From an uncultured Myxococcales bacterium (GTDB lineage Bacteria > Myxococcota_A > Bradymonadia > UBA4248): a stretch of DNA of 64,000 nucleotides. Positions within the stretch are counted from its first letter, which is position 1; each line of letters opens with the position of its first letter. Below the pieces are notes generated by a model. The model worked only from the letters and a program-made list of their open reading frames with translations. It was not told the origin of the DNA and ran no database searches. Where the stretch lies: contig CAYVQF010000008.1 of the NCBI GenBank assembly GCA_964454015.1, positions 99,258-163,257 of the forward strand, written 5' to 3'. The position numbers were made by a program, and so were the translations under genes. This document shows positions 30,966 to 43,669 of the stretch, one piece after another.

Positions 30966-31454
30966 TCAGGGGAAGCTTGCGCTCAATTCCCATTGGCCAC
31001 CTCCAAGAGCGAGGCGCTCCCATGACGTGGCGCCGATCAAGGCGACCGCGTTCCCTGTCGCTAAGGTGACCGTGCGACCGCTCAACCAGGAGGCCAACCA
31101 CTCCAGGCCTGGATTGTGTCCGACCACGGCCGCCCCACGGCATTGCTGGGGTGTCTCCCGGAGAATGGAGACTATCTCTTCCGGCGAGGCACCATATAGG
31201 GGGTTGCGTACGCTCGCGTTGATGCCGAAAACGTGGGCCACGTTTTGCCAGGTGGCGAAGGCGCGCGGTGCAGGGCTGACATAGGCACAGTGGACAGACA
31301 AGGCGTGGGCCTGAAAGCGATCCGCCAGGCGCTGCGCCTCAGCGACCCCCGTCGGGCTCAGGACACGCTCGCGGTCACTCATCCCGCGCATGGTCGGCAG
31401 GGCGTGGCCGTGGCGAATGAGGAGCAGTTGAATGGACGGCGTCACGTCAGGCAA
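30966..31454 (-). CDS. SixA-like phosphohistidine phosphatase (histidine phosphatase/PGAM superfamily)
   Basis: The RHG motif LLLIRHGHA lies at residues 10-18. There is a SPxxRA segment and a late catalytic His (VVGHNPG). 162 aa like E. coli SixA. The start overlaps the preceding ORF by 8 nt. Confidence 0.75.
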   Translation of the reverse strand: MPDVTPSIQLLLIRHGHALPTMRGMSDRERVLSPTGVAEAQRLADRFQAHALSVHCAYVSPAPRAFATWQNVAHVFGINASVRNPLYGASPEEIVSILRETPQQCRGAAVVGHNPGLEWLASWLSGRTVTLATGNAVALIGATSWERLALGGGQWELSASFP

Positions 31455-32037
31455 CTCCCAAGTCGAGGTAGGCCATGAGCACGATGCGGTAACGCGGATC
31501 GTGATTGAGGGAGAGGTCGTCGAGCGGCAGCACCAGTAGCGGAGCGGATTGCGCCAGGACGGTCGAGGTATCGATGAGGGCGCGCAAGCGCGCCAAGAGT
31601 CGGGCCAGCTCGCCTCGCACCTCTGCGCAGCCTCTGCCGTTGAGCCGGGTCACTTGGCGTTGGAGCTGGCGCAGGTGGTTGATGACGGCGCGGAGAAAGT
31701 GGCGGACGAAGCGGTTGGGGGGCGTGTCATAGGAGATCTGGTTCTGCTCGTCATAGACCTTGAGAAAGCGCCACTTTTCGCCCCGGGCGACAAAGTCGCG
31801 GCGCCGATGGGTGATGGCGATGCCATCGGGTTCGAGGGTGGAGTTGGCCAATAACTCGGAAGAGATGGCCGTGGCCTCGCCTGGAGCGACGAGCAAGGTG
31901 TGCGGCATCAAGACCTTGTGTGGCGCGTCTTGGATGGCTTCGAGGGCGCGCCAGAGCCGGCCGCCGTCAGCGTTGAAGACCGCATGGATGCGGGCAACTT
32001 CGTCTCTTATCGCTGTGAGAGAGTGGGGACTCGGCAT
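31447..32037 (-). CDS. Hypothetical protein resembling the N-terminal (McrB-interacting) half of McrC; no nuclease domain
   Basis: 196 aa. The motif SYDTPPNRFVRHFLRAVINHL resembles, from my recollection of E. coli McrC, a McrC N-domain segment DTLANRIIKSTLAIL. No PD-(D/E)xK motif is seen. It is translationally coupled to both neighbours. Confidence 0.55.
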   Translation of the reverse strand: MPSPHSLTAIRDEVARIHAVFNADGGRLWRALEAIQDAPHKVLMPHTLLVAPGEATAISSELLANSTLEPDGIAITHRRRDFVARGEKWRFLKVYDEQNQISYDTPPNRFVRHFLRAVINHLRQLQRQVTRLNGRGCAEVRGELARLLARLRALIDTSTVLAQSAPLLVLPLDDLSLNHDPRYRIVLMAYLDLGVA

Positions 32038-32044
32038 GGTTGGG

Positions 32045-33466
32045 TCAGAAGAAAGAGGCGAGTCCGCTGTCGAGGAGCTGGCGGTTCATGCGATAGACTT
32101 TGTCAGCGCTGAGGGGGTAGGTGGGGTGAGTACGCTGAGTGTGGGCGAGCAATTGGGCGAAGGGTTGGCCGGCGGCGATCAGGTCCAGGAGCTCCGTGGC
32201 GAGTTGATGGAGCTGGCTCAAGTCCTGAGGACCGACCAGGGCGTAGGCCAGGAGGGGGGGTAAAACAGTGCCGAGCTTGTCCTCCCCTCCCCGCAGCTTG
32301 GGAAGCACCTTGGCCGAGATGAGGAAGTCACCGTGGACGTCCCAGCCGCCAGCGCTGTTGCTCAAGTAGCGCAAGATTTCGTTGACCACACGGTAGCCGA
32401 AGTGAAGGTTGGCCGAGCGCAGGATGGCAGCCATACAGAGCAGATCCTGGCGTACCGCGTCGTAGCCTGCCCAGGTGCTGCAGACGGCGTCATAATCGAT
32501 GTCGTTGAACTCCAGGACGAAGGCGCGGTCCAGGACCTTGGGAGCGAAACTGAAGGTGGTCTCGTCGACATTGACCGTGCCAATGATCGAGAGGTTGGGC
32601 GTGAAGGTCAGCCGTGGCGGGACGATGCGCGCCCAATCTGCGCCATGGCAGACCTTATCGATAGTGATCTTGTGGCGCGGCAAGACCATGCCCGATGATC
32701 CCAGGCCCAGGTAGTGATAGGCCAGGGGCCAGTCGCTGTCCATTCTGCCGATGAAGAGCTGCTCGTGGCTCGAGGTCTCCGAACCCATATCGATCTGAGG
32801 CGCGCTTTGGGTCCACAAGGGGCGCGTAAAGGGGTGCACGGGCGCCAACTCACCCAATCTGAACTGCTGATCGATGATCTCGCAGGGGCACTCCATGAGA
32901 CTGAGGAGGTCGGACAGGTAATACTCGACCCGGGCGAGGTTGAGCTCATCGAGGATGATGAAGTGGCGGGGCGCGGCGTGGCCGAAAGCGATGAACTCGA
33001 GGTAGGCGTGGATAGCGACCCGCAGGGCGTCCGTCGGGTAATAGAGGCCCGTGAGGGGGTTGTAATAGCCCCAAACCTTGCGGGAGTCAGACCACTCCGG
33101 GCGGACGGGGAGAAAGGCGACCCGGTCACGTACCACCTGGGCGATCCCCGCTTCCTTGATGGCTGCGGCGCTCATGTCATCGCCCAGGGCACGGACGTCG
33201 ACATAGGTGTTGCCGTCCTCGCCTTCGAGGTCAGGGACGATGCCGTTTTGCACCAAGGTGCTGCGATAGGTAGGGCCCGTAGCGACGCCACCAAAGGGTC
33301 GGCCTTGATAGCGCCCTTCTTCCAAGACTCCGGCGGCGAGGCCAGCGGCCAGACGCCGAGCGAGCTGGGTTTTCCCGGAGCCGCTGATGCCCGCTAGGAG
33401 AACGAAAGGCTTGGTCGCAAGCGCTGTGATGAGGCTGTTAATGACACCACGGCGTTCCCGGATCAT
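32045..33466 (-). CDS. McrB-family AAA+ GTPase-like protein (no N-terminal DNA-binding domain)
   Basis: Walker A LLAGISGSGKTQLARRL. The McrB-type Walker B/signature is HFIILDELNLARVEYYLSDLLSLME (compare IDEINR...FGEL..LLE). The McrB motif NLSIIGTVNVDETTFSFAPKVLDRAF (compare IGTMNTADRS...ALRRRF) is present. Confidence 0.8.
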   Translation of the reverse strand: MIRERRGVINSLITALATKPFVLLAGISGSGKTQLARRLAAGLAAGVLEEGRYQGRPFGGVATGPTYRSTLVQNGIVPDLEGEDGNTYVDVRALGDDMSAAAIKEAGIAQVVRDRVAFLPVRPEWSDSRKVWGYYNPLTGLYYPTDALRVAIHAYLEFIAFGHAAPRHFIILDELNLARVEYYLSDLLSLMECPCEIIDQQFRLGELAPVHPFTRPLWTQSAPQIDMGSETSSHEQLFIGRMDSDWPLAYHYLGLGSSGMVLPRHKITIDKVCHGADWARIVPPRLTFTPNLSIIGTVNVDETTFSFAPKVLDRAFVLEFNDIDYDAVCSTWAGYDAVRQDLLCMAAILRSANLHFGYRVVNEILRYLSNSAGGWDVHGDFLISAKVLPKLRGGEDKLGTVLPPLLAYALVGPQDLSQLHQLATELLDLIAAGQPFAQLLAHTQRTHPTYPLSADKVYRMNRQLLDSGLASFF

Positions 33467-33678
33467 GAGCGACTCCTCTCTGCTGGCCTCGATGGTGCAC
33501 CTTGCACCGCGATCATTGTGTAGCCGTCCATCCTCTCAGGCGTCAATCTCCCAGCTCCAAGTGCAGCGTGCGCGATGGCTATCTTGGCTGCGAGGGGCGT
33601 GATGGCACGGGAATTTGACGAAAGGCCGCGTGTTTGTTATGCAAGGCCTGGCAAATGCGCGACAGCGCGGGCTTGAAT

Positions 33679-34539
33679 ATGCATTTTATCGATGAGGAAG
33701 AAACAGTGACTTTGGATAGCATTTATGACCAATCTCAGCGCGCTGCCGCAGCGGTGCTGGAGCGGGTTCGTTATCGTCCGACCATGGGCGTGGTGCTGGG
33801 CTCTGGTTTGGGAGCTTTCGTGGAGGGTCTGGCTGACAAGACGGTCATCCCCTATCAGGAGATTCCGGGCTTTCCCGTCTCTAAGGTGCATGGCCATGCA
33901 GGCAATCTCGTCTTCGGTCACATTGGTGGCAAGGAGATGGTGGTCATGCAGGGGCGGGTACACTTCTACGAGAGCGGCGACATGCACCGCACCACCTTTC
34001 CCATCCGGGTTCTGCGCCAATTGGGCTGCACCAAGATGGTGGTGACCAACGCAGCAGGGGCGGTGAATCGCACTTTTGCGCCAGGGGATCTGATGTTGAT
34101 CACGGATCACATCAACCTGATGATGGGGGGAGGTCCTCTCATTGGTGAGAACGATGACCGTTTTGGGCCGCGCTTCCCTGACATGAGCGAAGCCTATGAT
34201 CGGGAGTTGTCCGACGTTTTGCGGCAGACGGCCCAGCGCATGGCGTTGACCTTACGCGAAGGGGTCTACTGTGCTTTCCACGGGCCTGAGTACGAGACGC
34301 CAGCGGAGATCAGGATGGCGGAAGTCCTCGGCGCCGATGCGGTGGGGATGTCCACGGTGCCCGAGGTGGTGGTCGCCAATCACATGGGGATCCGCTGCGC
34401 GGGGGTCTCCTGCCTCTCGAACATGGCGGCCGGCATCAACGTGGGGCGTCTCTCCCACGATGATGTGATGGAAGTCAGCGCCACGGTGGCCCGGAACTTC
34501 GTCGAGCTCCTGTCCAAGGCTATCGTCGAGATGTTCTAA
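33679..34539 (+). CDS. punA: Purine nucleoside phosphorylase (trimeric PNP-I/PunA type)
   Basis: Near-identity of core motifs to mammalian/B. subtilis PNP: VHGHAGNLVFG, MQGRVHFYEGY-like, MVVTNAAGAVN, VGMSTVPEVVVA. Confidence 0.85.
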   Translation: MHFIDEEETVTLDSIYDQSQRAAAAVLERVRYRPTMGVVLGSGLGAFVEGLADKTVIPYQEIPGFPVSKVHGHAGNLVFGHIGGKEMVVMQGRVHFYESGDMHRTTFPIRVLRQLGCTKMVVTNAAGAVNRTFAPGDLMLITDHINLMMGGGPLIGENDDRFGPRFPDMSEAYDRELSDVLRQTAQRMALTLREGVYCAFHGPEYETPAEIRMAEVLGADAVGMSTVPEVVVANHMGIRCAGVSCLSNMAAGINVGRLSHDDVMEVSATVARNFVELLSKAIVEMF

Positions 34540-34589
34540 GCGCTCCTCTGATTGCCCTTTGCGCTTACCCCTCGAGGAGGGGGCGAAAG

Positions 34590-35495
34590 ATGCCGGGACC
34601 TAACAACCCTCGCCCAGGAGGGAGCAACAGGTCGCTCGAACGGGTCGTCATCGTCAGTGGTATGGGCGGCAGCGGCAAGACCACGGCCTTGCATGCCCTC
34701 GAGGACATCGGTTTCTACTGTATCGACAATTTGCCCCTCGTGCTCTTCAAGGCGCTCCTTGACCGCCTCGAGCCGCACCCGGAGATCAGCCGGGTCGCTC
34801 TGGTGGTCGATATCCGGGACCGGCTCTTTCTCGAGGAAGCACCGCAAGCGCTGCTGGAGATCATCGCTGCCGGTATTCCGACGGAGCTGCTCTTCTTGGA
34901 TGCCGAAGACGACGTGCTGTTGCGGCGCTACAAAGAGACCCGACGGCGTCACCCGCTGGAGAGCCATCGCCCCCTGCGCAACGCCATCGAGGAAGAGCGG
35001 CGCATGCTCGAAGCGCTCCTCCATTTGGCCAACCTGGTCATCGACACTTCCTCGATGAGTCCACACGCGCTGCGGCGTTGTTTGGATGATCGCTTCGAGG
35101 GAGGTGGACTCGCCCTGCGAGTCAGCGTCATGAGCTTTGGTTTCAAGTATGGCGTTCCGGCCGAGGCCGATCTGGTCTTTGACGTTCGATTCTTGGCCAA
35201 CCCCTTCTTCGTGCCCCACCTGCGCACGCTCTGCGGCCTCGATCCACCGCTGCGGGACTACGTCTTTGCTGATCCCAAGGCCCAGATCTTCGTCGACAAG
35301 GCGCAAGATTTCGTGGGCTTTCTGCTGCCGAATTTCGCGGCAGAGGGCAAGCGCTACGTGACCATCGCCATCGGCTGCACGGGGGGCCAGCACCGAAGCG
35401 TCGCGATCGCCGAAGCTTGTGCCGATGTTTTGGAGCGCGGCGCCTACACGGTGCGGCGGGTTCACCGCGACATGCGGCCGAGCAACCAGCTCTAA
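34590..35495 (+). CDS. rapZ: RNase adapter protein RapZ (YhbJ)
   Basis: N-terminal P-loop VIVSGMGGSGKTTAL and the C-terminal conserved IAIGCTGGQHRSV motif. 301 aa. Confidence 0.85.
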   Translation: MPGPNNPRPGGSNRSLERVVIVSGMGGSGKTTALHALEDIGFYCIDNLPLVLFKALLDRLEPHPEISRVALVVDIRDRLFLEEAPQALLEIIAAGIPTELLFLDAEDDVLLRRYKETRRRHPLESHRPLRNAIEEERRMLEALLHLANLVIDTSSMSPHALRRCLDDRFEGGGLALRVSVMSFGFKYGVPAEADLVFDVRFLANPFFVPHLRTLCGLDPPLRDYVFADPKAQIFVDKAQDFVGFLLPNFAAEGKRYVTIAIGCTGGQHRSVAIAEACADVLERGAYTVRRVHRDMRPSNQL

Positions 35496-36685
35496 GCACA
35501 GAGATCCGTGACGCGCGTCATGAAGCGGCGCGTGTTGTCCGCCAGATCTGGGCCATGCCGATGGAGATCACCGCCGATGAGCAGCACCGTGTCGTTGCCG
35601 TAAAAAGCGAGCAGCTCTGGCACCTTGGCCAGGGTCATCCCCCCGGCAGGTGCTGGCCATGTACGGTGGCCATGCGAGGGCCTGCGACAGGCGGCGCTGA
35701 TGGCTGCACATTCGCCAGGGCTAAAGGAGAAGCGCCCGCCGAAGCTCGGGAAGATGCTGACATCGGCACCGGCGAGGCGCGGCAAGAGTCCGTAAACCAA
35801 GGCATGGGAGAGGCCATGGTGGGGAGCGGCAGAGAAAGCGCCGAGAAAGGCCGGGTGGCAGAGGAGGGGGAGCTCGAGCCCTGGCGCGTCGCGCAGCATG
35901 CGGAGGGCATCGAAACCGCTCAGCCCCGGTGCGACCATGAGCGCGCCAGCGCCGGCAGTGGCGGCTAGGTGCGCTCGTTCCAGGAGTGTCTCCAGGGGGC
36001 CGCTGACATTGGGGCAGTAGATGGTGTGGCTCCCATGCTGGGCGTTGGCCGCAGCGATCGCTTCTGCGCATCGCGCGACGCGCTCGGCAAAGGGCGAAAA
36101 GCGCTGGTCGGCGAGACCATGGTCGTCTTTGACCATATCGAGGCCGCCCGCGGCGAGGGCGGAGGCCATGGTGGCCAGCTCACGTGGCGCGAGGCCCATG
36201 GGCTTGATGGCGGAGCAGAAGAGGGGGCGCTGGGCGACACCTACTTTGTTGCGCAAACCGCCGACGCCGAAACGCGGGCCTCCAAAGGCTTCTTGGAGGG
36301 ATCGGGGGAGGCCGAGGTCGAGGAGGCGGATGCCGGGTTTGAGGCTGATGTTGCCGTAGACGACGTTCAGAAACTGGGTCAACTCGAAACCCGTGACGCT
36401 CGGGTTGAAGGCGATGCGCACGCGATGCGTGCCCTCGCCAGTGTCGTCTATGCTGAGAATGCGGCCCAGGATGTGTTCACGTATGGCTGTGGAGGTGATG
36501 AGATCTTCGGGGAACTCCACGGTCTGCTCGACGCAGATGTCCCTGGCGCGGGCGTGGGCCTGCTCCGGGCTGGTGGTGGCGATGAGATAGGTGGCCACCA
36601 GGGCCTGCTCTTCACTGGCAGGGAAGGCCGCGAGGAGCTGCTCGGCGCTGTTTGCACCGGGCTGAGGTGAGGGTTGCGTGGCCAT
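35492..36685 (-). CDS. RuBisCO-like protein (form IV RuBisCO large-subunit homologue)
   Basis: RuBisCO large-chain core motifs are present: GGLDMVKDDHG (compare GGLDFTKDDE, retaining the carbamylation Lys) and PLFCSAIKPMGL (compare PLLGCTIKPKLGL). Active-site substitutions (E204->H, K177->M) and a ~400-aa length are typical of RLPs. Start MATQPS. The last gene of the transketolase operon. Confidence 0.8.
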   Translation of the reverse strand: MATQPSPQPGANSAEQLLAAFPASEEQALVATYLIATTSPEQAHARARDICVEQTVEFPEDLITSTAIREHILGRILSIDDTGEGTHRVRIAFNPSVTGFELTQFLNVVYGNISLKPGIRLLDLGLPRSLQEAFGGPRFGVGGLRNKVGVAQRPLFCSAIKPMGLAPRELATMASALAAGGLDMVKDDHGLADQRFSPFAERVARCAEAIAAANAQHGSHTIYCPNVSGPLETLLERAHLAATAGAGALMVAPGLSGFDALRMLRDAPGLELPLLCHPAFLGAFSAAPHHGLSHALVYGLLPRLAGADVSIFPSFGGRFSFSPGECAAISAACRRPSHGHRTWPAPAGGMTLAKVPELLAFYGNDTVLLIGGDLHRHGPDLADNTRRFMTRVTDLCA

Positions 36686-37692
36686 CAGAGCGCCTCTGGT
36701 TTGGCGTCGAAACTCGCGGCGGGAACCGCGTCCGTGTCGCAGCAAGGGTTCGCGTCGGAAAAGTCGACGCCCAGGCGCGCCCCTGCCGCCGCAAGGATAC
36801 CTGCCGTGTCGATGCCCAGCTTGGCCATGAGGTAAGGGGTGCTGGCGCCGTGGGCGTAGGTATCGCGCAGACCGAGACGCACCAGGGGGCGCGCTAGGGC
36901 GGCCTCGGCCATGACTTCAGCCAACGCCGAGCCCAAGCCACCAATGATGCTGTGGTTTTCGATAGAGAGCACTGGGCCGCGGTGCGGGCGGAGGGCTGCG
37001 CAGAGGATGTCCGCCGGGAAAGGTTTGAGGGTGGAGACGTGCAGGTGTTGCACCGTGAGGCCTGCCGCTCGCATGACCTTGGCGGCGGCCATCGCTTCTT
37101 GGGTGCAGATGCCACTGCTCACCAGCGTGATGTCGTCACCGTCGCCGAGGTCGCGGACGCCGTTCGCCTGCAGGGGGTGATGGGGGGGAAAGAGGCGAGG
37201 CACTTCGCCGCGGAGCATGCGTAGGTAGACGGGACCATCGATGGCGTCAGCCACATCCAAGGCCGACTCGACCTCGGTGGCGTCGCCGACTTCGATGATA
37301 TGCATGTTGGGGATGGCCCGCATCAGGGCAATGTCATCGATGGCCTGGTGGGTGACGCCGCCAGGGGTGGTGATCCCCGGGAGGAAGCCAAAGAGTCGCA
37401 CCCGCAGGTTGGGGTAGGCGATGGCCATGGCAACTTGATCGAAGGCGCGGCGGGTGATGAAGACGGCAAAGGTGTGTACGCATGGGGTGTAGCCCTCCCG
37501 CGCCAAGCCGGCGGCGACACCGATCATGTTTTGCTCCGCCATCCCCATTGAAAAGAAGCGGTCTGGGTAGGCGTCGCGAAAGAGATCGGCTTCACAGGAA
37601 GCGGTGAGGTCCGCCGAGAGGACGACGACATCGGGGCGATCCTTGGCCCAGGCGACGAGGTTGTGGGCGTGAGGGCGTGGTACCATGATCAT
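36685..37692 (-). CDS. Transketolase, C-terminal (pyrimidine-binding) subunit of a split transketolase
   Basis: Transketolase Pyr/C-terminal domain with FSMGMAEQNMIGVAAGLA and HTFAVFITRRAFDQV. Start MIMVPR. The start overlaps the upstream gene's stop (ATGA). Confidence 0.8.
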   Translation of the reverse strand: MIMVPRPHAHNLVAWAKDRPDVVVLSADLTASCEADLFRDAYPDRFFSMGMAEQNMIGVAAGLAREGYTPCVHTFAVFITRRAFDQVAMAIAYPNLRVRLFGFLPGITTPGGVTHQAIDDIALMRAIPNMHIIEVGDATEVESALDVADAIDGPVYLRMLRGEVPRLFPPHHPLQANGVRDLGDGDDITLVSSGICTQEAMAAAKVMRAAGLTVQHLHVSTLKPFPADILCAALRPHRGPVLSIENHSIIGGLGSALAEVMAEAALARPLVRLGLRDTYAHGASTPYLMAKLGIDTAGILAAAGARLGVDFSDANPCCDTDAVPAASFDAKPEAL

Positions 37693-38612
37693 GACGGCAG
37701 CTCCTCGTTCAACTGGGCCAGGCGTTCGATGTAAGGTTGGCGTTCGGCGTCGTTTTTGAAGCGCACGTAGTGGAGCTTGGGAGCGCGTTGCCGTAGGGCG
37801 TCGATGCCGCGGCAGGGATCGGTGCGCAACAGCAGCGCGACGGGGCGTCCTTGGGAAGGTTGGGCCGCTGCGGCGATCAAAGCCGCCGGATCGTGGCCGT
37901 CGAGCTCGTGGGCCAGGCCGCCAAAGGCCGTGATGCGCGCGGCGAGAGGCTCGATGTTCATGACCTGCTGCATCGCACCATCGCACTGCTGCCCGTTGCA
38001 GTCGACCACCATGGTCAGGTTGTCAATCTCGTGGAAGGCCATGGCGGCGATGGCTTCCCAGGTCTGACCCTCTTGGAACTCGCCGTCGGACATGAAGACC
38101 CACACCCGACCGCTGGCGCGGCGTATTTTGCGGGCGAGGGCGATCCCTGCGGCTTGGCTCAAGGCTTGGGCCAATGAGCCTGCGGTGACTTCGTGGCCAG
38201 GGGAGTGCTCCGCGCCGATGAGCTCGACCGTGCTGCCGTCGGTGTTGAAGAGGTCGAGGGCCTCAGGGCCCATGCGCCCGCATTCGATGAGGGTAGCGTA
38301 GAGGACGAGGGCATAGTGCACGGGTGAGAAGATGAAGCGATCCAAGTGGTCCTCACGCGGTCCGTTGTAGAGGGCGCCACTGAAGTAAGGTCGCCCAGGG
38401 CCGGGGACGTGGGCAAAGGGAAGAGGGAGGCTCGGCGCGAGGGATGGGCCGAGGCGCATCAGGCCGGAGTAGAGGGTCGCGAGGGCCTCACTGGTGGAGC
38501 AGGCTTGGCTGAGATAGCCGCCGTTATTGCTGAGGGTGTGGGCCAGAACCCGGCGACGGATGCGCTGGGCGGTGTTGGCGATGCGCGTGGGGGAGAGCTC
38601 AGGTGCAGACAT
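37689..38612 (-). CDS. Transketolase, N-terminal (thiamine-diphosphate-binding) subunit
   Basis: TPP-binding motif VFMSDGEFQEGQTWEAIAAMAFHEIDNLTMVVDCNGQQ (GDG...N). 307 aa, typical of the TktA-N small subunit. Confidence 0.8.
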   Translation of the reverse strand: MSAPELSPTRIANTAQRIRRRVLAHTLSNNGGYLSQACSTSEALATLYSGLMRLGPSLAPSLPLPFAHVPGPGRPYFSGALYNGPREDHLDRFIFSPVHYALVLYATLIECGRMGPEALDLFNTDGSTVELIGAEHSPGHEVTAGSLAQALSQAAGIALARKIRRASGRVWVFMSDGEFQEGQTWEAIAAMAFHEIDNLTMVVDCNGQQCDGAMQQVMNIEPLAARITAFGGLAHELDGHDPAALIAAAAQPSQGRPVALLLRTDPCRGIDALRQRAPKLHYVRFKNDAERQPYIERLAQLNEELPS

Positions 38613-38979
38613 GGGGCGACCTTGGGGACGTGGAGAGGCGATGCAGGTGGTGCGCTACGCGGCCACTGCGGAGGCCTATTGGCTAAACCGAAATGGGACG
38701 CTTGTCGAGTCTAGAGGCAGCGAGGTCATGGGGTGCTTGGGCTGGTCCGAAGCCTATCGGTGGCCCATAGGCACGCCATTGCTTGTTTACTTAGGGCCCA
38801 TCCCCTATGCTGCCGGGAGCTTTGCGCCAGGGTGAGGCGCGCAGAAGAGTTGGCGTTGGCCGAGGTGCAAGGGGACCGCGCCAGTAAAAATTTCGTGGTT
38901 ACAAGAGCAGAACCGGCGCCAGGCCGAGCTGGGCGGCGGGCAGCGCAACGATGGGCGCCAGCGGGCGCGAGGAGGAGAG

Positions 38980-40167
38980 ATGGCGGGTCCTTTGGAAGGT
39001 TTGGTGGTCTTGGACATGACCCGAGTGTTGGCGGGGCCGTTTTGCACGATGCTCTTGGCGGACATGGGCGCCGAGGTCATCAAGGTGGAGCGACCCAAGA
39101 CGGGAGACGACAGCCGCGCCTTTGGGCCCTTCGTGGGCGGCGAGAGCGCGTATTTCATGAGCATCAACAGAGGCAAGAAGTCCGTGACTCTGGATCTGAA
39201 GCATCCCGAGGGCAAGGCGCTGTTGCGCAGCTTGGTGCAGAAGGCGGATGTGCTGGTGGAGAACTTCAAGCCTGGGGTCTTGGCCAAGCTGGGCTTCTCC
39301 CATGAGGCGCTGCGTGCACTCAACCCACGACTGATCTATGCGGCGTCGTCGGGATTTGGCCACTCCGGTCCTTATAGCGAGCGGCCGGCTTATGACCTGA
39401 TCATTCAGGGTATGGGCGGCATGATGAGCATCACCGGACCCGACGCGACGCAGCCCACCAAGGTGGGGTCATCGATTGCCGACATCTTTGCGGGGGTCTT
39501 TTGTGCCATCGGCATTTTGGCAGCTTTGCATCGGCGTCAGGTCAGCGGCGAGGGGCAGATGGTCGATGTGGCCATGTTGGACTGTATGGTGGCGATCCTG
39601 GAGAACGCCATCTCGCGCTATGTGGCGGCCGGTGAGAGCCCTGTGCCGATAGGCAATAGGCATCCCTCCATTGCGCCTTTTGCGACGGTGAAGACTGCCG
39701 ATGGGCTCATCAATATCGCCTGTGGCAATGACGAATTGTGGCGCCGTTTTTGTGCCGTGGCGGGCTTGGAGGCGCTCGTGGCGGATGCCCGTTTCGCAAC
39801 GAACCCGGCGCGGGTCGAGCATTGGGAGGCGCTAGAGCCTTTGATCAACGCGGCGACCGTGAGCAGGACATCCCAAGCGTGGTTGACGGCGTTGCAGGGG
39901 GCGGGGGTGCCCAGCGGTCCGCTGAACGATGTGCAGGCGGTCATGGTCGATCCGCAGGTTTTGGCGCGCAAGATGTTGGTGGAGGTGATTCATCCCGTGG
40001 CTGGCAAGATGCTGGTCCCTGGCGTGCCGATCAAGTTCTCCGAGATGGACGACGGGGTGTTGCGTCCGGCACCGCTGCTGGGGCAGGACAACGCTGCGAT
40101 CTATGGCGGGCTCCTGGGTTTGAGCGATGAGGCGCTGGCGGCGTTGCAGGCTCAGGGTGTGATGTAG
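38980..40167 (+). CDS. Family III CoA-transferase (CaiB/BaiF family)
   Basis: N-terminal LEGLVVLDMTRVLAGPFCTMLLADMGAEVIKVE is typical of class III CoA transferases. The catalytic Asp region is present. 395 aa. Confidence 0.8.
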   Translation: MAGPLEGLVVLDMTRVLAGPFCTMLLADMGAEVIKVERPKTGDDSRAFGPFVGGESAYFMSINRGKKSVTLDLKHPEGKALLRSLVQKADVLVENFKPGVLAKLGFSHEALRALNPRLIYAASSGFGHSGPYSERPAYDLIIQGMGGMMSITGPDATQPTKVGSSIADIFAGVFCAIGILAALHRRQVSGEGQMVDVAMLDCMVAILENAISRYVAAGESPVPIGNRHPSIAPFATVKTADGLINIACGNDELWRRFCAVAGLEALVADARFATNPARVEHWEALEPLINAATVSRTSQAWLTALQGAGVPSGPLNDVQAVMVDPQVLARKMLVEVIHPVAGKMLVPGVPIKFSEMDDGVLRPAPLLGQDNAAIYGGLLGLSDEALAALQAQGVM

Positions 40168-40216
40168 GCGTGCCCCCCTCGGGGTAGAGAATGACGGGTC
40201 TTTTGGGAGAAGGCGG

Positions 40217-41749
40217 GTGACGGCCATGTCCAGCAAGGAGTTCGAGTCGGCGCTGGAGGCGCTGGCGCGCGGTGGCGGAGAGGCGGCGCAAGCCAAGCAA
40301 ACCAAGGCGGGCAAGTCCCTGGTACGGGCGCGCATCGAGGCGCTGGCTGATCCGGGGAGCTTCTGCGAGATGGATCGTTTCGTGACGTCACGGGCCGTCG
40401 ACTTTGGCATGGACCAGAAGCGCTTCTACGGTGACGGCGTGGTGACCGGGGCGTGCACCATCGATGGGCAACGGGTGATGCTCGCGGCGGAGGATTTCAC
40501 CGTTCTCGGCGGATCCTTGGGTGAGATGCATGCGGCCAAGATCGCGCGCGCGGCGGAGCTGGCCGCCGAGACGGGGGTGCCCTTCATTCAACTCAACGAC
40601 TCAGGAGGGGCGCGCATCCAAGAAGGCGTGGCGGCGCTGGATGGTTATGGGCGCATTTTTCGCGCCAACGTGCGGGCCTCGGGGGTGGTGCCCCAGTTGT
40701 CGCTGATTCTCGGACCGTGTGCCGGCGGCGCCGCCTACTCGCCGGGCTTGACGGACTTTGTTTTCATGGTCGAGGGGATGAGCCGGATGTTCATCACCGG
40801 GCCTGATGTGATCAGCGCCGTGACCGGTGAGGTGGTGGACTTCGAGGGTCTTGGCGGGGCGGCGGTGCACTGCGCGCGCAGTGGCAATGCCCATTTTTCA
40901 GCACCGAGCGAGGCGGCCCTCTTTGCTCAGGTGCGGCGCTTGTTGCGGTTTTTGCCGGCGAACAATTTGGCTGAACCACCGCAGGCAGCGGCGGCACCAC
41001 CGGCGGTGGATGAGGTCGCTGTACCTGAGGATCTGCGCCAGTCTTACGACGTTCGTGCGGTGCTGCGGGGGGTGCTGGACGCAGGCGAACTCATGGAGGT
41101 GCAAGCGGACTTTGCGCCGAACGCAGTGGTTGGTTTTGCGCGCATCGGTGGTCGGGGGATCGGCGTGGTGGCCAACCAGCCGGCCCATTTGGCAGGGGTT
41201 CTGGACATCGACGCAGCGGACAAGATCGCCCGTTTCGTTCGTTTCTGTGATGCCTTCAACTTCCCTGTGGTCAATTTCGTGGACGTTCCGGGTTTCCTAC
41301 CCGGTGTGGACCAGGAGCATGCGGGGATCATTCGCCATGGGGCCAAGTTGCTCTATGCCTATGCCGAGGCGTCGGTGCCAAAGATCGCCGTGGTTTTGCG
41401 CAAGGCCTATGGGGGGGCCTATATAGGTCTGTGCAGTCGCTCCTTGGGCTACGATCGCATTTTGGCGTTGCCGACAGCGCGGATCGCCGTGATGGGTCCG
41501 GAAGGTGCGGTGAACATCTTGTATAGGCGCGAGATTGCTGAAGCTGCGGATGGGGCGGCGGCGCGTCGGGCGCATGTGGCGTCCTTCGAAGAAGGTTTTG
41601 CGACACCCTTTGCGGCAGCGGCGCTGGGTTTGGTTGACAACGTGGTGGCCCCGGAGTGCTTGCGGTGTGAGCTGGAGGGCGCGTTGGCGATGACGGCAGG
41701 TAAGCGTTTATCTGCAGCACCGCGGCGCCACGGCAACATTCCGCTCTAG
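40217..41749 (+). CDS. Acyl-CoA carboxyltransferase subunit (methylmalonyl-CoA decarboxylase alpha / propionyl-CoA carboxylase beta family)
   Basis: Carboxyltransferase N- and C-halves are present: GKSLVRARIEALADPGSF, QLNDSGGARIQEG, ILGPCAGGAAYSP, FARIGGRGIGVVANQP. 510 aa. Confidence 0.85.
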   Translation: MTAMSSKEFESALEALARGGGEAAQAKQTKAGKSLVRARIEALADPGSFCEMDRFVTSRAVDFGMDQKRFYGDGVVTGACTIDGQRVMLAAEDFTVLGGSLGEMHAAKIARAAELAAETGVPFIQLNDSGGARIQEGVAALDGYGRIFRANVRASGVVPQLSLILGPCAGGAAYSPGLTDFVFMVEGMSRMFITGPDVISAVTGEVVDFEGLGGAAVHCARSGNAHFSAPSEAALFAQVRRLLRFLPANNLAEPPQAAAAPPAVDEVAVPEDLRQSYDVRAVLRGVLDAGELMEVQADFAPNAVVGFARIGGRGIGVVANQPAHLAGVLDIDAADKIARFVRFCDAFNFPVVNFVDVPGFLPGVDQEHAGIIRHGAKLLYAYAEASVPKIAVVLRKAYGGAYIGLCSRSLGYDRILALPTARIAVMGPEGAVNILYRREIAEAADGAAARRAHVASFEEGFATPFAAAALGLVDNVVAPECLRCELEGALAMTAGKRLSAAPRRHGNIPL

Positions 41750-41782
41750 GCTGGGCAGGGCTTGGGCGAGAGAGGGAGTGCC

Positions 41783-42070
41783 ATGTCAGATGGTTTGGTA
41801 TTGGCGGTCGCCGGTGTCATTGCGGTCTTTGTGGTGATGCTGGTGTTGATGGGGGTGGTGGCGTTGCTGCGGTGGCTTGGCCAGGCACGGGCGGAGGTGG
41901 CGTCGTCAGCGGCGGCGTCCTTGCCAGCGCCGGCGGACCGTGACGAAGTGGGTGGCGCAGAGGTGGCGTTGCTGGCGGTGGCCCTCTATTGCAGTGGACC
42001 AGGTTCGCTGGTGGTGTTGCCTGAGGTGTCGCGGCGTGAGCTGTCGCTATGGCGCCGGGGAGGCAAATGA
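41783..42070 (+). CDS. Small membrane subunit, OadG-like (decarboxylase gamma chain)
   Basis: MSDGLVLAVAGVIAVFVVMLVLMGVVALL is a single N-terminal TM helix. The position between the carboxyltransferase and the biotin carrier matches oad/mmd operons. Its stop overlaps the next start. Confidence 0.55.
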   Translation: MSDGLVLAVAGVIAVFVVMLVLMGVVALLRWLGQARAEVASSAAASLPAPADRDEVGGAEVALLAVALYCSGPGSLVVLPEVSRRELSLWRRGGK

Positions 42071-42071
42071 G

Positions 42072-42506
42072 ATGAGTGAGTTGATGCGGTTACGTGTGGG
42101 AGGGCGCGACTACGACGTGGAGGTACGTCCGCAGGGTGGTGGGCGCTTCGAGGTGGTGGTGGAGGGGACGCTACACGTGGTGGAGTGGGACGGTGGCGGA
42201 GGCGGTGGCGGAGGTGGTGGGAGCGCCCCACCCCGCCGGGACGAACGCCCACCGCCCGCCAGCCGCCGTGGCCCAGCCACGGCGGCTGGCGGGCACGTCT
42301 TGGCCCCCATGCCGGGTCAGGTCGTGGCCATCCATGTCGCGCCGGGCCAAGACGTGGGCGCCAACACGGCGCTCGTGACCCTGGAATCCATGAAAATGGA
42401 GAGCGCCGTGGTGGCGCCCGTGGGCGGTCGGGTCATACGGGTGGCCGTCGCCCACCAACAGAAAGTCAGCACCGGCGATCTCCTCGTCGAAATCGAATCC
42501 CCATAA
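42072..42506 (+). CDS. Biotin carboxyl carrier protein of the decarboxylase (biotinyl domain)
   Basis: C-terminal biotinyl domain with an ESMKME-type motif (LESMKMESAV). The N-terminal part is separated by a Gly10/Pro-rich linker. Confidence 0.8.
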   Translation: MSELMRLRVGGRDYDVEVRPQGGGRFEVVVEGTLHVVEWDGGGGGGGGGGSAPPRRDERPPPASRRGPATAAGGHVLAPMPGQVVAIHVAPGQDVGANTALVTLESMKMESAVVAPVGGRVIRVAVAHQQKVSTGDLLVEIESP

Positions 42507-42541
42507 AATAACAGCGCTTCAAACAATAAGGACCCCTCTGC

Positions 42542-43669
42542 ATGGCCAGCATCGATTTCGAAAGCATCACCCAAGCCCTCATGCATGGAAGTGGCATCGG
42601 ACAACTCGCCTGGGGCAACGTCCTGATGCTCATCATCGCCGGGATTTTGCTCTTCCTCGCCATTCGACACCGCTTCGAGCCCCTGCTCTTAGTCCCCATC
42701 GGCTTCGGCGCCATCCTCTGCAACCTCCCCGGGACCGGACTGACCGAGCCCGGTGGACTCCTCGACGTCTTCTACTGGGGCGTCAAATCCGGCGTCTTTC
42801 CGCCCCTCATCTTCCTCGGCGTCGGCGCCTTGACCGACTTTGGACCCCTCCTCGCCAATCCCAAGCTCATTCTCCTCGGCGCGGCGGCCCAGGTCGGCAT
42901 TTTCGGCACCCTCCTCGGTGCCATCGCCCTCGGCTTCGATCTGCACGAGGCGGCCGCCATCGGCATCATCGGCGGCGCCGACGGCCCAACCTCCATCTAT
43001 GTCGCCAGTGCCCTGGCGCCACACCTGCTCGGCGCCGTCGCCGTCGCGGCCTACTCCTACATGGCCCTGGTGCCCCTCATCCAACCGCCCATCATGCGCG
43101 TCTTGACCTCCGCCAAAGAACGGCGCGTGCGCATGCCCAAGGGGCGCGAGGTCTCCCAGCGCGAGAAAATTCTCTTCCCCACCACGGTGACCATCCTCTG
43201 CGCCTTGCTCCTGCCCTCGGCGGCGCCCCTGGTCGGTATGCTCATGCTGGGCAACCTCCTGCGCGAAGCCAAGGTCGTCGACCGCCTGCACGACGCCGCC
43301 CAAGGCGCCTTACTCAATATCGTCACCCTCTTGCTCGGACTCGCCGTGGGGTCGCAAATGGGGGCCCAACAGTTTCTGGCCGTCGATACCCTGCTCATCC
43401 TCGGGCTCGGGGCGGTGGCCTTCTCCATGGGGACCGCGAGCGGGGTGATCTTTGGCAAGATCATGTGTCGCCTCTCGGGCTGGAAGGTCAACCCATTGTT
43501 GGGGGCGGCTGGCGTCTCGGCCGTACCCATGGCCGCGCGGGTGGTGCACCGCGTCGGACAGGAGGAAGATCCGCAGAACTTCCTCCTCATGCACGCCATG
43601 GGTCCCAACGTGGCCGGCGTGATCGGCTCGGCCGTGGCCGCCGGGGTCCTCATGGCGGTCTTTGGCTAA
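42542..43669 (+). CDS. Na+-translocating decarboxylase beta subunit (OadB/MmdB/GcdB family)
   Basis: A polytopic membrane protein with the conserved beta-subunit regions [17 protein letters not shown] and [12 protein letters not shown]. 375 aa. Confidence 0.85.

Follow-up and report, generated by a model that had tools for sequence, protein, structure and literature searches.

Gene organization at the locus

In the window (the whole 64-kb stretch of DNA that was analyzed), three co-directional open reading frames (ORFs) encode, in the order TK-N, TK-C and RLP, the two subunits of a split transketolase-like enzyme and a RuBisCO-like protein. The features of the locus are as follows.

37689..38612, minus strand: TK-N, N-terminal (ThDP/PP-domain) subunit of the split transketolase-like enzyme (ORF, 307 aa)
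37689..37692, minus strand: ATGA stop/start overlap of TK-N and TK-C, translational coupling (read off the sequence; TK-C ATG at 37692)
36685..37692, minus strand: TK-C, Pyr plus C-terminal domain subunit of the split transketolase-like enzyme (ORF, 335 aa, start MIMVPRPH)
36683..36687, minus strand: TGATG stop/start overlap of TK-C and RLP (read off the sequence; one base shared, 36685)
35492..36685, minus strand: RLP, form IV RuBisCO-like protein of DeepYkr type, predicted 5-methylthioribulose-1-P 1,3-isomerase (ORF, 397 aa, start MATQPS)
34590-35495: rapZ, between the purine nucleoside phosphorylase (PNP) gene and RLP
33655..34539, plus strand: PunA-type PNP (NF006054, 368 bits; cut-off, 218)

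The initial annotation had described a single operon coupled by ATGA overlaps. The ORFs and their overlapping stop and start codons bear out the coupled operon, with Shine-Dalgarno-like GAGGAG and AGAGG upstream of both internal starts (TK-C and RLP). A true ATGA is present only where TK-N meets TK-C; TK-C and RLP meet in TGATG, the A of the RLP start at 36685 being the last base of the TK-C stop TGA, yet they are coupled as well. At related loci, the median spacing from the TK-N stop to the TK-C start was 3 nt (123 loci), and the conserved core of the RLP began a median of 34 nt past the TK-C stop (116 loci).

The reported lack of a kinase or isomerase partner held for the 64-kb window, where no mtnA, mtnK, mtnP or cupin gene was found, but not for relatives, whose operons carry mtnK and mtnA. 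The phosphorylase that had been offered as a functional hint is indeed a nearby PunA-type PNP, scoring merely 92 bits against the MTAP model (cut-off, 275). However, it lies on the strand opposite to the RLP and beyond rapZ, whose stop overlaps the RLP stop by 4 nt, and PNP adjacency to the cluster was seen in only about 3 of ~160 loci, being otherwise not conserved. The link of this PNP to the operon is therefore weak, and its role as a supplier of pentose-1-phosphate is possible but unproven.

The RuBisCO-like protein and its clade

The RLP matched PF00016 and scored below every NCBIfam equivalog cut-off. Its best PDB match was 3QFW, an RLP of R. palustris (E, 4.5e-81, against 1e-50 for MtnW), with identities of about 47% to that structure and 39% to P0163 of R. 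palustris. Both the motifs and an alignment with solved chains of the RuBisCO family equated K161-P-M163 with K175-P-K177 of RuBisCO (K177→M) and GGLDMVK186-D-D-H189 with K201-D-D-E204 (carbamylatable Lys retained, E204→H), in agreement with the residues originally described; N112 is also present. Phylogenetic placement, which the initial annotation had called for, put the RLP in the DeepYkr clade as sister to the 3QFW protein. In this neighbor-joining tree, TK-linked and cupin-linked RLPs were mixed within one clade, with MtnW as a distant outgroup. Among the columns at least 90% conserved in TK-linked RLPs (n = 100), the five cupin-linked RLPs all shared 87 and 3QFW shared 81, against only 56 for MtnW. 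The RLP thus does have an assignable context, given its DeepYkr membership, its 3QFW sister and the cupin-linked RLPs mixed in with the TK-linked ones.

In the MTA-isoprenoid shunt, known from Rhodospirillum rubrum and Rhodopseudomonas palustris, characterized DeepYkr members turn 5-methylthioribulose-1-P into 1-methylthioxylulose-5-P; R. palustris RLP1 and its cupin have been shown experimentally to be the MTRu-1-P isomerase and MTXu-5-P methylsulfurylase (PMC5893883). The window RLP has the KDDHG(L/I)ADQ, GN(I/S)S and GGRF motifs in common with the RLPs of this oxygen-independent shunt, and the upstream part is organized alike in its relatives, with MtnP or MtnK ahead of MtnA. It differs from the Rhodopseudomonas proteins in overall sequence (39-47% identity) and in a loop after the HPA motif that is 6 residues longer. 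In Rhodopseudomonas and Rhodomicrobium, a Cupin_2 methylsulfurylase gene follows the RLP gene (that of 3QFW and those of a second R. palustris strain and of R. vannielii), whereas here a coupled split transketolase-like ThDP enzyme lies upstream. The DXP that the shunt yields via glutathione chemistry is an unlikely product here. Because the RLP falls in the DeepYkr clade with cupin-linked RLPs interspersed, its reaction is probably the already known MTRu-1-P 1,3-isomerization, and the novelty is the transketolase-like partner rather than the RLP. One TK-linked homologue bears the JGI label 'S-methyl-5-thioribulose 1-phosphate isomerase', and our literature search found no activity test of the 3QFW protein.

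The split transketolase-like enzyme and its pairing with the RLP

Pfam families, PDB matches and the RLP residues agree with the initial call of a split transketolase beside a non-carboxylating form IV RLP. TK-N matched PF00456 (60 bits) and TK-C matched PF02779 and PF02780, and the scores against NF004559 were 150 and 204 bits, respectively (cut-off, 488). TK-C also matched DXS chains (E around 1e-32), with NCBIfam dxs scores of 147 for TK-C (cut-off, 466) and 18 for TK-N. The closest solved structure is the split transketolase of Carboxydothermus hydrogenoformans (TK-N to the N-chain, 6YAK; TK-C to 6YAJ, 223 bits), which is likewise built of two chains, with matching ThDP/metal-binding residues (PMC7661550). 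That enzyme belongs to the pentose phosphate pathway and has the canonical SGH, GHP and H..GEDG, whereas the version here has GGY, (M/L)I and L..TPGG, and its links are with an RLP and mtn genes.

TK-N retains the ThDP motif SDGE...N but has an invariant GGY[LM]SQACS where canonical transketolase has SGH(26)PGG (H26→Y), together with H100→M/L. TK-C has an invariant GFLPG[IV]TTPGG[AV]THQA instead of (T)H(461)..G-E-D(469)-G-x-x-H(473)Q, with invariant H461→L, E468→P and D469→G, while retaining equivalents of E411, S385, R520, R/K358 and H473. In canonical transketolase, R358, S385 and R520 bind phosphate, and H461 and D469 bind the phosphate and C4-OH of the xylulose-5-P donor. The retained R358, S385 and R520 equivalents would fit a 5-phosphate on the substrate. 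The donor-binding residues of transketolase are H66, H100, G114 and H473; H100 is Phe in DXP synthase, and H100L/F mutations of transketolase raise the use of pyruvate, a non-hydroxylated donor (PMC7661550). The H100→M/L change mimics DXP synthase and so suggests a pocket that accommodates a donor lacking the C1 hydroxyl, one whose C1 may be CH3 or CH2-SCH3. DXS, a ThDP enzyme of the transketolase superfamily, is likewise hydrophobic at this position, takes a donor without a C1 hydroxyl and has glyceraldehyde-3-P as its sugar-phosphate partner, as proposed below for the enzyme here, but it is single-chain rather than two-chain and decarboxylates pyruvate. DXS keeps the H26 and D469 equivalents.

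The adjacency survey suggested by the initial annotation showed a conserved pairing, far beyond chance and not unique to this genome. The order TK-N, TK-C, RLP occurred in 55 of the 80 species-representative genomes carrying a related RLP, across about ten phyla (with members among Planctomycetota, Chloroflexota, Bacillota, Nitrospirota, Spirochaetota, Myxococcota, Chromatiaceae, Calditrichota, Actinomycetota and Alphaproteobacteria). In the reciprocal scan, seeded on the TK-C signature and confined to metagenome loci with enough downstream DNA, an RLP followed TK-C in 55/68. We found no description of this pairing in the literature, and it appears to be undescribed. The R. palustris-type cupin adjoined five RLPs without a transketolase and was found in none of the TK-RLP loci. 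The sole trace of this cupin beside a transketolase was a short cupin fragment in L092/L093, a single lineage encoding mtnA, the transketolase and cupins together, in which no RLP was found within the fetched DNA; six loci had the transketolase and a Cupin_3 gene without an RLP. The transketolase is therefore not always paired with the RLP, nor does it always exclude cupins.

The guess of an MTA or 5-deoxy-pentose sugar-phosphate salvage route gained support from the operons of relatives. Four loci (L008, L055, L111 and L150) have mtnK-mtnA-tkN-tkC-rlp operons, accompanied in L008 (Chloroflexus sp. MS-G) by an ABC sugar transporter and a SorC regulator, and mtnA was adjacent in about 20 loci. 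L072 encodes an MtnA-TK-N fusion, with a PunA-type PNP 4 kb from the cluster; L123 has a PNP (PunA-type)-mtnA-tkN-tkC-rlp operon whose PNP is 43% identical to that of the window; and L081 has MtnP. The MtnK and MtnA of relatives scored above the NCBIfam equivalog cut-offs. Counting against the salvage reading set out below, mtn genes were present in only about 15% of loci within the fetched flanks, the window has no mtnA, mtnK, mtnP or cupin gene, and its RLP shares just 39-47% identity with the Rhodopseudomonas relatives compared. Several clusters include ABC sugar transporters and SorC regulators, and some have Cys/Met-family PLP enzymes or a SAM riboswitch nearby. In L113, a class II aldolase fused to an SDR, which resembles a step of the DHAP shunt, lies between mtnA and the transketolase. 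The class II aldolase genes of L078 and L113 scored far higher against fuculose-phosphate-aldolase and aldolase/SDR models than against MtnB.

A candidate salvage route and competing readings

Our preferred reading, to which we give a probability of about 0.55, is that TK-N, TK-C and RLP form a self-contained module for oxygen-independent salvage of the SAM by-products MTA (5'-methylthioadenosine), MTR (methylthioribose) and probably 5'-deoxyadenosine; the pairing is probably the mark of a new branch of methionine/5'-deoxynucleoside salvage that needs no oxygen. MtnA, preceded by MtnP, by a PNP or by the pair MtnN and MtnK, all encoded elsewhere in the genome, would supply 5-methylthio- (or 5-deoxy-) ribulose-1-phosphate. 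By a 1,3-proton transfer, which we infer from homology to the characterized R. rubrum and R. palustris enzymes, the RLP would shift the carbonyl to give 1-methylthio- (or 1-deoxy-) D-xylulose-5-phosphate. The split transketolase (ThDP), standing in for the glutathione-dependent cupin methylsulfurylase, would take this xylulose-5-P analogue as 'donor' and split C2-C3, freeing glyceraldehyde-3-phosphate and leaving on ThDP a C2 fragment whose former C1 bears SCH3 (or H), not OH. On chemical grounds, this fragment would most likely lose methanethiol by β-elimination to become acetyl-ThDP, which would yield acetate or acetyl-phosphate together with CH3SH from which methionine can be remade; it might instead be released as (methylthio)acetaldehyde or acetaldehyde. 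Phosphoketolase, which belongs to another family with other domain models, offers a mechanistic analogy only: it cleaves a xylulose-5-P-type donor and dehydrates its C2-ThDP intermediate to acetyl-ThDP, the leaving group being water there and methanethiol here, and fluoropyruvate behaves similarly on ThDP enzymes. The new C-C rearrangement pathway of the initial annotation is thus possible in a narrower sense, as a new ThDP-dependent C2-C3 cleavage step.

The predicted route has the entry steps of the DHAP shunt (MtnK/MtnP, MtnA and the class II aldolase Ald2; MTA and 5'-deoxyadenosine) and a similar logic, turning a 5-substituted ribulose-1-P into a triose phosphate and a C2 aldehyde-level fragment; some operons in both are arranged for growth on exogenous nucleosides or sugars. 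The shunt gives DHAP, whereas the split here would take two steps, RLP isomerization and then ThDP-dependent C2-C3 cleavage, and would give glyceraldehyde-3-P, and the TK-RLP module has no such aldolase except in L113, which has both. The loss of the H461/D469 equivalents would be unexpected if glyceraldehyde-3-P were merely the leaving aldehyde, and it counts against the salvage reading.

It is also conceivable, though rather unlikely, that the main task of the module is to dispose of the 5-deoxyribose that radical-SAM enzymes produce. In that case, the RLP would convert 5-deoxyribulose-1-P directly to DXP, and the transketolase, working as a DXP lyase or as DXP synthase in reverse, would cleave it to glyceraldehyde-3-P and hydroxyethyl-ThDP (acetaldehyde or acetyl); in a variant, it would act on DXP from a cupin encoded elsewhere. 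The DXP synthase-like H100→M/L, with H100L/F mutants favoring a methyl-bearing donor, the DXS matches of TK-C, the joint encoding of mtnA, transketolase and cupins in L092/L093 and the aldolase/SDR fusion of L113 are consistent with this, as is the precedent of dual use in the DHAP shunt, which is described as bifunctional for MTA and 5'-deoxyadenosine. Against it, no report of DeepYkr RLPs accepting 5-deoxyribulose-1-P was found in the literature, the Cys/Met-family PLP enzymes and SAM riboswitch near some clusters indicate sulfur salvage, and cleaving DXP seems wasteful in MEP-pathway bacteria, where it is useful. The MtnK and MtnA neighbors cannot tell the two substrates apart.

The usual order mtnA, tkN, tkC, rlp and the MtnA-TK-N fusion mean that the transketolase could instead act directly after MtnA, before or independently of the RLP, which we consider improbable. 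Its substrate might be 5-methylthioribulose-1-P itself, cleaved with elimination of phosphate. Alternatively, free methylthioribose or 5-deoxyribose might serve it as the acceptor aldose, in the manner of 7-deoxysedoheptulose formation, or the entire module might catabolize some other imported pentose or deoxy-sugar. A Synechococcus transketolase reportedly uses 5-deoxyribose promiscuously, the hydrophobic residues at the H461/D469 positions could accommodate a distal end that lacks phosphate and terminates in a methylthio or deoxy group, and the sugar transporters and SorC regulators would fit an imported substrate. The conserved R358, S385 and R520 equivalents nevertheless argue for a phosphorylated substrate, ribulo-configured ketoses are not known to be transketolase donors, the RLP active site is indistinguishable from those of cupin-linked RLPs, and this reading would leave H100→M/L at the C1 site of the donor unexplained.

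That an ordinary split transketolase of the pentose phosphate pathway just happens to adjoin the RLP, with no common function, is very improbable: Pfam and NCBIfam call both subunits just 'transketolase' and the nearest solved structure is an active split transketolase, but the scores fall far below the equivalog cut-off, residues conserved in canonical transketolases are invariantly substituted, and the synteny is two-way across phyla with overlapping stop and start codons. Least credible, and already refuted at the sequence level, is an MtnW-type 2,3-diketo-5-methylthiopentyl-1-P enolase of classical aerobic methionine salvage: MtnW models are the top NCBIfam hits of the RLP (PRK09549, 243 bits), and MtnW/YkrW of B. 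subtilis and G. kaustophilus has the RuBisCO large-subunit fold, a methionine salvage role and a longer post-HPA loop in common with it, but the scores are well under the cut-offs (409 and 514), the catalytic Lys position of MtnW (N123 equivalent) is an invariant Asn, KDDH replaces KDDE, MtnW is the outgroup in the tree, and the genomic partners differ, with no mtnB, mtnX or mtnD recurring in the clusters.

Conservation and gene context of the TK-N/TK-C/RLP module

An operon of three minus-strand genes in the window (35492-38612) encodes the two subunits of a split transketolase-like enzyme (TK-N and TK-C) and a form IV RuBisCO-like protein (RLP). Families were called with Pfam and NCBIfam, and none of the three proteins reached a curated NCBIfam equivalog cut-off.

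Operon genes and nearby nucleoside phosphorylase in the window
37689-38612, minus strand: TK-N, 307 aa (PF00456)
36685-37692, minus strand: TK-C, 335 aa (PF02779 and PF02780)
35492-36685, minus strand: RLP, 397 aa (PF00016, 86 bits)
33655-34539, strand opposite to RLP: PunA-type purine nucleoside phosphorylase (PNP), behind rapZ

The initial annotation had described translational coupling through ATGA overlaps; this held for the TK-N stop and TK-C start but not for the TK-C/RLP junction, where a one-base overlap (TGATG) was found instead, the RLP ATG and the TK-C TGA having the A in common. A Shine-Dalgarno-like purine-rich stretch precedes each internal start (TK-C and RLP). The stop codons of rapZ (plus strand) and RLP overlap convergently by 4 nt (35492-35495), so that a terminator could not fit between these convergent transcription units, and a promoter and terminator scan of 33400-39200 returned nothing informative. 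The window organism is uncultured and occurs in several metagenomes.

Adjacency of the transketolase-like and RLP genes was conserved when surveyed from either side. An alignment of 20 RLP homologues, scanned against one genome per GTDB species, recovered 80 loci, in which gene order was judged by tblastn and inspection of open reading frames (ORFs). TK-N, TK-C, and RLP were found in the same order and on the same strand in 55 of these species-level loci, distributed among Planctomycetota, Chloroflexota, Bacillota, Nitrospirota, Spirochaetota, Myxococcota, Chromatiaceae, Calditrichota, Actinomycetota, and Alphaproteobacteria. In the reciprocal scan, metagenome contigs were searched with TK-C signature peptides, and the RLP was present in 55/68 of the TK-C-seeded loci that had at least 600 nt of downstream DNA. 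The TK subunits (51-68% identity to the window proteins) are more conserved than the RLP (46-55%). Spacing is tight, with a median of 3 nt from the TK-N stop to the TK-C start (n = 123 loci) and the conserved RLP core starting a median of 34 nt past the TK-C stop (n = 116 loci). The module really is minimal, because all-against-all clustering of neighboring ORFs revealed no further gene family that is generally conserved.

The recurrent pathway-specific neighbors of TK-RLP were exclusively genes for the salvage of methylthioadenosine (MTA) and methylthioribose (MTR). These are strongly enriched, since a given single-copy gene is expected in well under 1% of random 16-kb neighborhoods, whereas mtnA adjoins the cluster in about 20 of some 135 TK loci. 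Operons of the order mtnK-mtnA-tkN-tkC-rlp were identified in Chloroflexus sp. MS-G (L008, where an ABC sugar transporter and a SorC regulator accompany it), Anaerosolibacter (L055), and two further loci (L111 and L150), with MtnK and MtnA above their NCBIfam equivalog cut-offs (e.g., 464 versus 275 and 436 versus 279). The earlier statement that the operon lacks a kinase or isomerase partner is thus true of the window, where no mtnA, mtnK, or mtnP lies within 64 kb, but not of its relatives, in which mtnK-mtnA belong to the operon. A search for homologues in the window likewise returned no mtnA, mtnK, cupin, Cys/Met-family PLP enzyme, solute-binding protein (SBP), or SorC. In an alphaproteobacterial MAG, a single 656-aa ORF (L072, 4931-6901) comprises a full MtnA (TIGR00512, 425 bits) and TK-N, a Rosetta-stone fusion that ties the TK-like enzyme to MTR-1-P isomerase.

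Other loci extend this context. One cluster ends in an MtnP gene (L081), and another forms a PNP-mtnA-tkN-tkC-rlp operon (L123, 2059-7162) led by a PunA-type PNP (NF006054, 333 bits; 43% identical to the window PNP), which hints that inosine-type phosphorolysis (perhaps of MTI or 5′-deoxyinosine) may feed the pathway in some organisms. The PNP that the initial annotation placed near the window operon is indeed of the PunA type, but it lies on the other strand behind rapZ, and is only weakly implicated in the pathway. Elsewhere (L113, 1063-7081), a 656-aa class II aldolase/short-chain dehydrogenase fusion is placed inside the operon, between mtnA and tkN-tkC-rlp, so that the TK-RLP branch may share this operon with a branch resembling the DHAP shunt. 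Cys/Met-family PLP enzymes are encoded close to four clusters. No riboswitch was detected 5′ of any TK operon when the window and 14 loci were scanned with Rfam; the only element near one was a SAM-I riboswitch (L061, 9416-9516; 87 bits) about 350 nt downstream of the RLP, preceding a group of genes, among them those for a cystathionine-gamma-synthase-family PLP enzyme and for a cysteine-synthase-like protein.

Affiliation of the RLP and its alternative neighbors

The residues initially read from the RLP were correct: K161-P-M163 corresponds to K175-P-K177 of RuBisCO and K186-D-D-H189, which keeps the carbamylatable Lys, to K201-D-D-E204. A bona fide RuBisCO (forms I-III), with the catalytic set K175, K177, K201, D203, E204, and H294-R295, was rejected on the basis of K177→M, E204→H, R295→P (HPA), and a score of 148 against the rubisco_III cut-off of 497; a carboxylase function was rejected too. 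The function of apiose/erythronate-type RLPs was also rejected (OiaX, 88 versus 700), and no kinase of that pathway is nearby.

The clade placement that the initial annotation had left to phylogeny could be made from PDB matches, a neighbor-joining (NJ) tree, and conserved columns, all of which point to DeepYkr. The best PDB match was 3QFW (E = 4.5e-81; about 47% identity), ahead of YkrW/MtnW chains (1e-43 to 1e-50) and Photo chains (2QYG and 1YKW; about 1e-35 to 1e-38). The NJ tree agreed with this placement, in which R. palustris RLPs (and not the R. rubrum sequence) represented DeepYkr. Among the columns conserved in at least 90% of TK-linked RLPs (n = 100), 81 are identical in 3QFW and 56 in MtnW. 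At the position equivalent to N123 (RuBisCO numbering), the window RLP (VYGN112ISL), 3QFW, and P0163, another R. palustris RLP (39% identical to the window protein), have Asn, whereas MtnW has Lys (VFGKLSL in 2ZVI), which is reportedly the general base of the MtnW/YkrW enolase (Imker et al. 2007). This Asn, together with KDDH in place of the KDDE of MtnW, counted against an enolase, as did the scores: MtnW is the best-scoring NCBIfam model of the RLP, at 243 versus a cut-off of 409 (PRK09549), and TIGR03332 gave 194 versus 514. Because of the 3QFW match, the Asn, and the KDDH motif, we regard the window RLP as DeepYkr-type by sequence and not MtnW. Characterized DeepYkr RLPs convert 5-methylthioribulose-1-P (MTRu-1-P) to 1-methylthioxylulose-5-P and 1-methylthioribulose-5-P. 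By homology and operon context, the window RLP is predicted to turn MTRu-1-P into 1-methylthioxylulose-5-P (EC 5.3.3.23).

The 3QFW protein matches an RLP of Rhodopseudomonas palustris (CP000301.1) at 100% identity. A Cupin_2 gene lies directly 3′ of this RLP gene, and Rhodomicrobium vannielii and another R. palustris genome have the same pair. A cupin of this type, the methylsulfurylase partner of the RLP in the MTA-isoprenoid shunt, adjoins the RLP in 5 of the 80 genome loci (L031, L039, L043, L045, and L078), with 35-47% identity to the Rhodopseudomonas and Rhodomicrobium cupins, and the TK is absent from all five. When the R. palustris and R. vannielii cupins and the five cupin-linked homologues were used as tblastn queries, no match was obtained in the 64-kb window or in any TK-RLP locus. 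The window RLP does not have the adjoining Cupin_2 MTXu-5-P methylsulfurylase gene of the MTA-isoprenoid shunt; a cupin may be encoded elsewhere in the genome. The proteins themselves are hardly separable: cupin-linked and TK-linked RLPs are interspersed in the NJ tree, 87 of the 100 conserved columns are identical in all five cupin-linked proteins, and the two groups can be told apart at just one column, the K177-equivalent (M or L). Exceptions apart, one and the same RLP thus has two neighbors that exclude each other, as would be expected if TK and cupin are alternative handlers of its product.

The exceptions were as follows. In six related metagenome loci (L103, L112, L117, L139, L143, and L154), a gene for a 93-aa EutQ-like Cupin_3 protein (e.g., L139, 1191-1472) lies directly 3′ of TK-C, and the DNA retrieved contained no RLP. 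Acetate kinase activity has been reported for EutQ-family proteins, and, speculatively, such a gene beside the TK would fit an acetyl-phosphate product. L092 and L093 carry mtnA, TK, an IS fragment, and cupins; the IS110-type transposase fragment of L093 (6241-6669) lies between TK-C and two cupin genes, and in this low-GC lineage the site normally occupied by the RLP may have been disrupted. Among the five loci with an R. palustris-type cupin, the TK-less Pelolinea locus (L078) has a class II aldolase/adducin-family gene 3′ of the RLP (6631-7290), whose best matches are L-fuculose-phosphate aldolase models, far ahead of a weak MtnB match, and a zinc-type alcohol dehydrogenase 5′ of it, identified by eye only.

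Active site of the transketolase-like enzyme

The closest structure to TK-N and TK-C is the active split transketolase of Carboxydothermus hydrogenoformans (6YAK/6YAJ), and the ThDP-binding PP and Pyr domains are present (PF00456, PF02779, and PF02780). Residues follow the numbering of E. coli transketolase, to whose sequence the family was aligned. In canonical transketolases (yeast and E. coli), the acceptor/phosphate set consists of R358, S385, H461, D469, and R520, of which H461, R358, and R520 bind phosphate and D469 serves in hydroxyl recognition.

Active-site motifs replaced in the TK-like family (canonical → family)
SGH26PGG → GGY[LM]SQACS: Y in 44/44 aligned sequences
GH100P → (M/L)I: M or L in every sequence displayed, L in the window
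(T)H461..GED469G..H473Q → GFLPG[IV]TTPGG[AV]THQA: H461→L, E468→P, and D469→G invariant in 52

The family retains the ThDP/metal motif (SDGE...CNG), the cofactor Glu (AEQN), G114, H473, and the equivalents of H261 (LHY), R/K358, S385, and R520, with H or Q at the H66 position. A canonical transketolase (EC 2.2.1.1) was rejected: its donor set is incomplete (H100→L here, H26→Y invariant), as is its acceptor/phosphate set (H461→L and D469→G invariant), and NF004559 gave 150 for TK-N and 204 for TK-C against a cut-off of 488. The 1-deoxy-D-xylulose-5-P (DXP) synthase was rejected as well, the enzyme being composed of two chains and not one, with TIGR00204 scores of 147 (TK-C) and 18 (TK-N) versus 466; the hydrophobic H100 position is the sole feature common to DXP synthase and the TK-like family. 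H66, H100, G114, and H473 are donor-binding residues, DXP synthase invariably has Phe at the H100 position, and H100L/F raises transketolase activity with pyruvate, a donor without the C1 hydroxyl (PMC7661550). Judged from these motifs, the TK-like enzyme is different from normal transketolase. With H100 hydrophobic as in DXP synthase, the donor pocket appears to have been rebuilt for a C1 other than CH2OH, with most phosphate binders retained. Such a pocket would match a xylulose-5-P analogue in which C1 is CH2-SCH3 or CH3; the candidates that fit are 1-methylthioxylulose-5-P, the predicted product of the RLP, and DXP, its 5-deoxy counterpart.

In two loci, which are further exceptions to the TK-RLP pairing, TK-N and TK-C are fused into one chain of 662-671 aa that retains the GGYLSQACS signature (L127, 4014-6002; L132, 2785-4800); no RLP lies within 5 kb of this fused, solitary TK.

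Salvage route, rival readings, and flanking genes

In the route that we propose, MtnP, PNP, or MtnK would make MTR-1-P from MTA or MTR, MtnA would isomerize it to MTRu-1-P, and the RLP would convert this to 1-methylthioxylulose-5-P; these three steps draw on homology and operon context, and we infer the two that follow. The TK-like enzyme would cleave the C2-C3 bond in a ThDP-dependent manner, releasing glyceraldehyde-3-P, and the resulting beta-methylthio ThDP enamine would eliminate methanethiol to give acetyl-ThDP and then acetate or acetyl-phosphate, or would be protonated and leave as (methylthio)acetaldehyde. The elimination is expected from the established chemistry of two analogous cases, phosphoketolase and the reaction of ThDP enzymes with fluoropyruvate. 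We give the overall reading, RLP followed by TK-like cleavage, slightly better than even odds (about 0.55). It is a more tentative suggestion that the split enzyme could be a new ThDP-dependent 1-methylthio-D-xylulose-5-phosphate lyase that expels methanethiol through a phosphoketolase-like beta-elimination, yielding glyceraldehyde-3-P and acetyl-phosphate or acetate. With similar reserve, the RLP and this lyase might constitute a glutathione- and oxygen-independent methionine salvage, here named the RLP-transketolase shunt, which would suit the many anaerobes and Gram-positive bacteria carrying the module.

Among the rivals, a 5′-deoxyadenosine/DXP version of the same scheme, for which DXP would be the cleaved sugar, seems rather unlikely. 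That the TK acts directly after MtnA, or on another sugar, is doubtful to a greater degree; gene order and the MtnA-TK-N fusion suggest action after MtnA, and under either variant the loss of H461 and D469 would be easier to explain. The sequence evidence stands strongly against both a PPP transketolase that is a neighbor by chance, which is very improbable, and an MtnW enolase, which is scarcely credible.

The RLP and the pathway entry are already known, and the ThDP partner is conserved and uncharacterized, its downstream chemistry being probably new. A full-text literature search found no paper tying a DeepYkr RLP to transketolase, with an earlier remark in the primary clade papers being possible, and the word "ketolase" is absent from a 2018 review of methionine-salvage variants. 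MTA and 5′-deoxyadenosine are unavoidable, inhibitory by-products of SAM chemistry. To our knowledge, their recycling in strict anaerobes is partly known, the routes described being the DHAP shunt and the MTA-isoprenoid shunt. The proposed shunt, if true, would be a third and apparently very common solution, widespread in anaerobic and phototrophic bacteria of many phyla and more frequent than the cupin-based MTA-isoprenoid shunt in the sampled RLP relatives (55 TK versus 5 cupin partners in the 80 closest species-level loci). A large group of "transketolases" and "RuBisCO large subunits", uniformly mis-annotated across genomes and metagenomes, would then receive a function, and the transketolase superfamily would gain a new reaction type, its donor site remodeled to take a C1 without a hydroxyl. 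The shunt would also have a bearing on environmental methanethiol production.

The genes flanking the window operon, namely the CoA-transferase/methylmalonyl-CoA-decarboxylase operon, rapZ, sixA, and the AAA/DUF2357 pair, were rejected as parts of the system because other genomes do not keep them beside TK-RLP.

Further flanking genes in the window
38980-43669, plus strand: family III CoA-transferase, MmdA-like carboxyltransferase, small gamma-like ORF, biotin carrier, and OAD_beta membrane subunit
30966-33466, minus strand: 473-aa AAA-type NTPase (weak Pfam matches), DUF2357 protein, and SixA-like phosphohistidine phosphatase

The former, divergent from the TK operon, looks like an operon for a Na+-pumping decarboxylase of methylmalonyl-CoA or a related acyl-CoA, and in the latter the AAA-type NTPase and the DUF2357 protein may be an McrBC-like restriction or defense pair.
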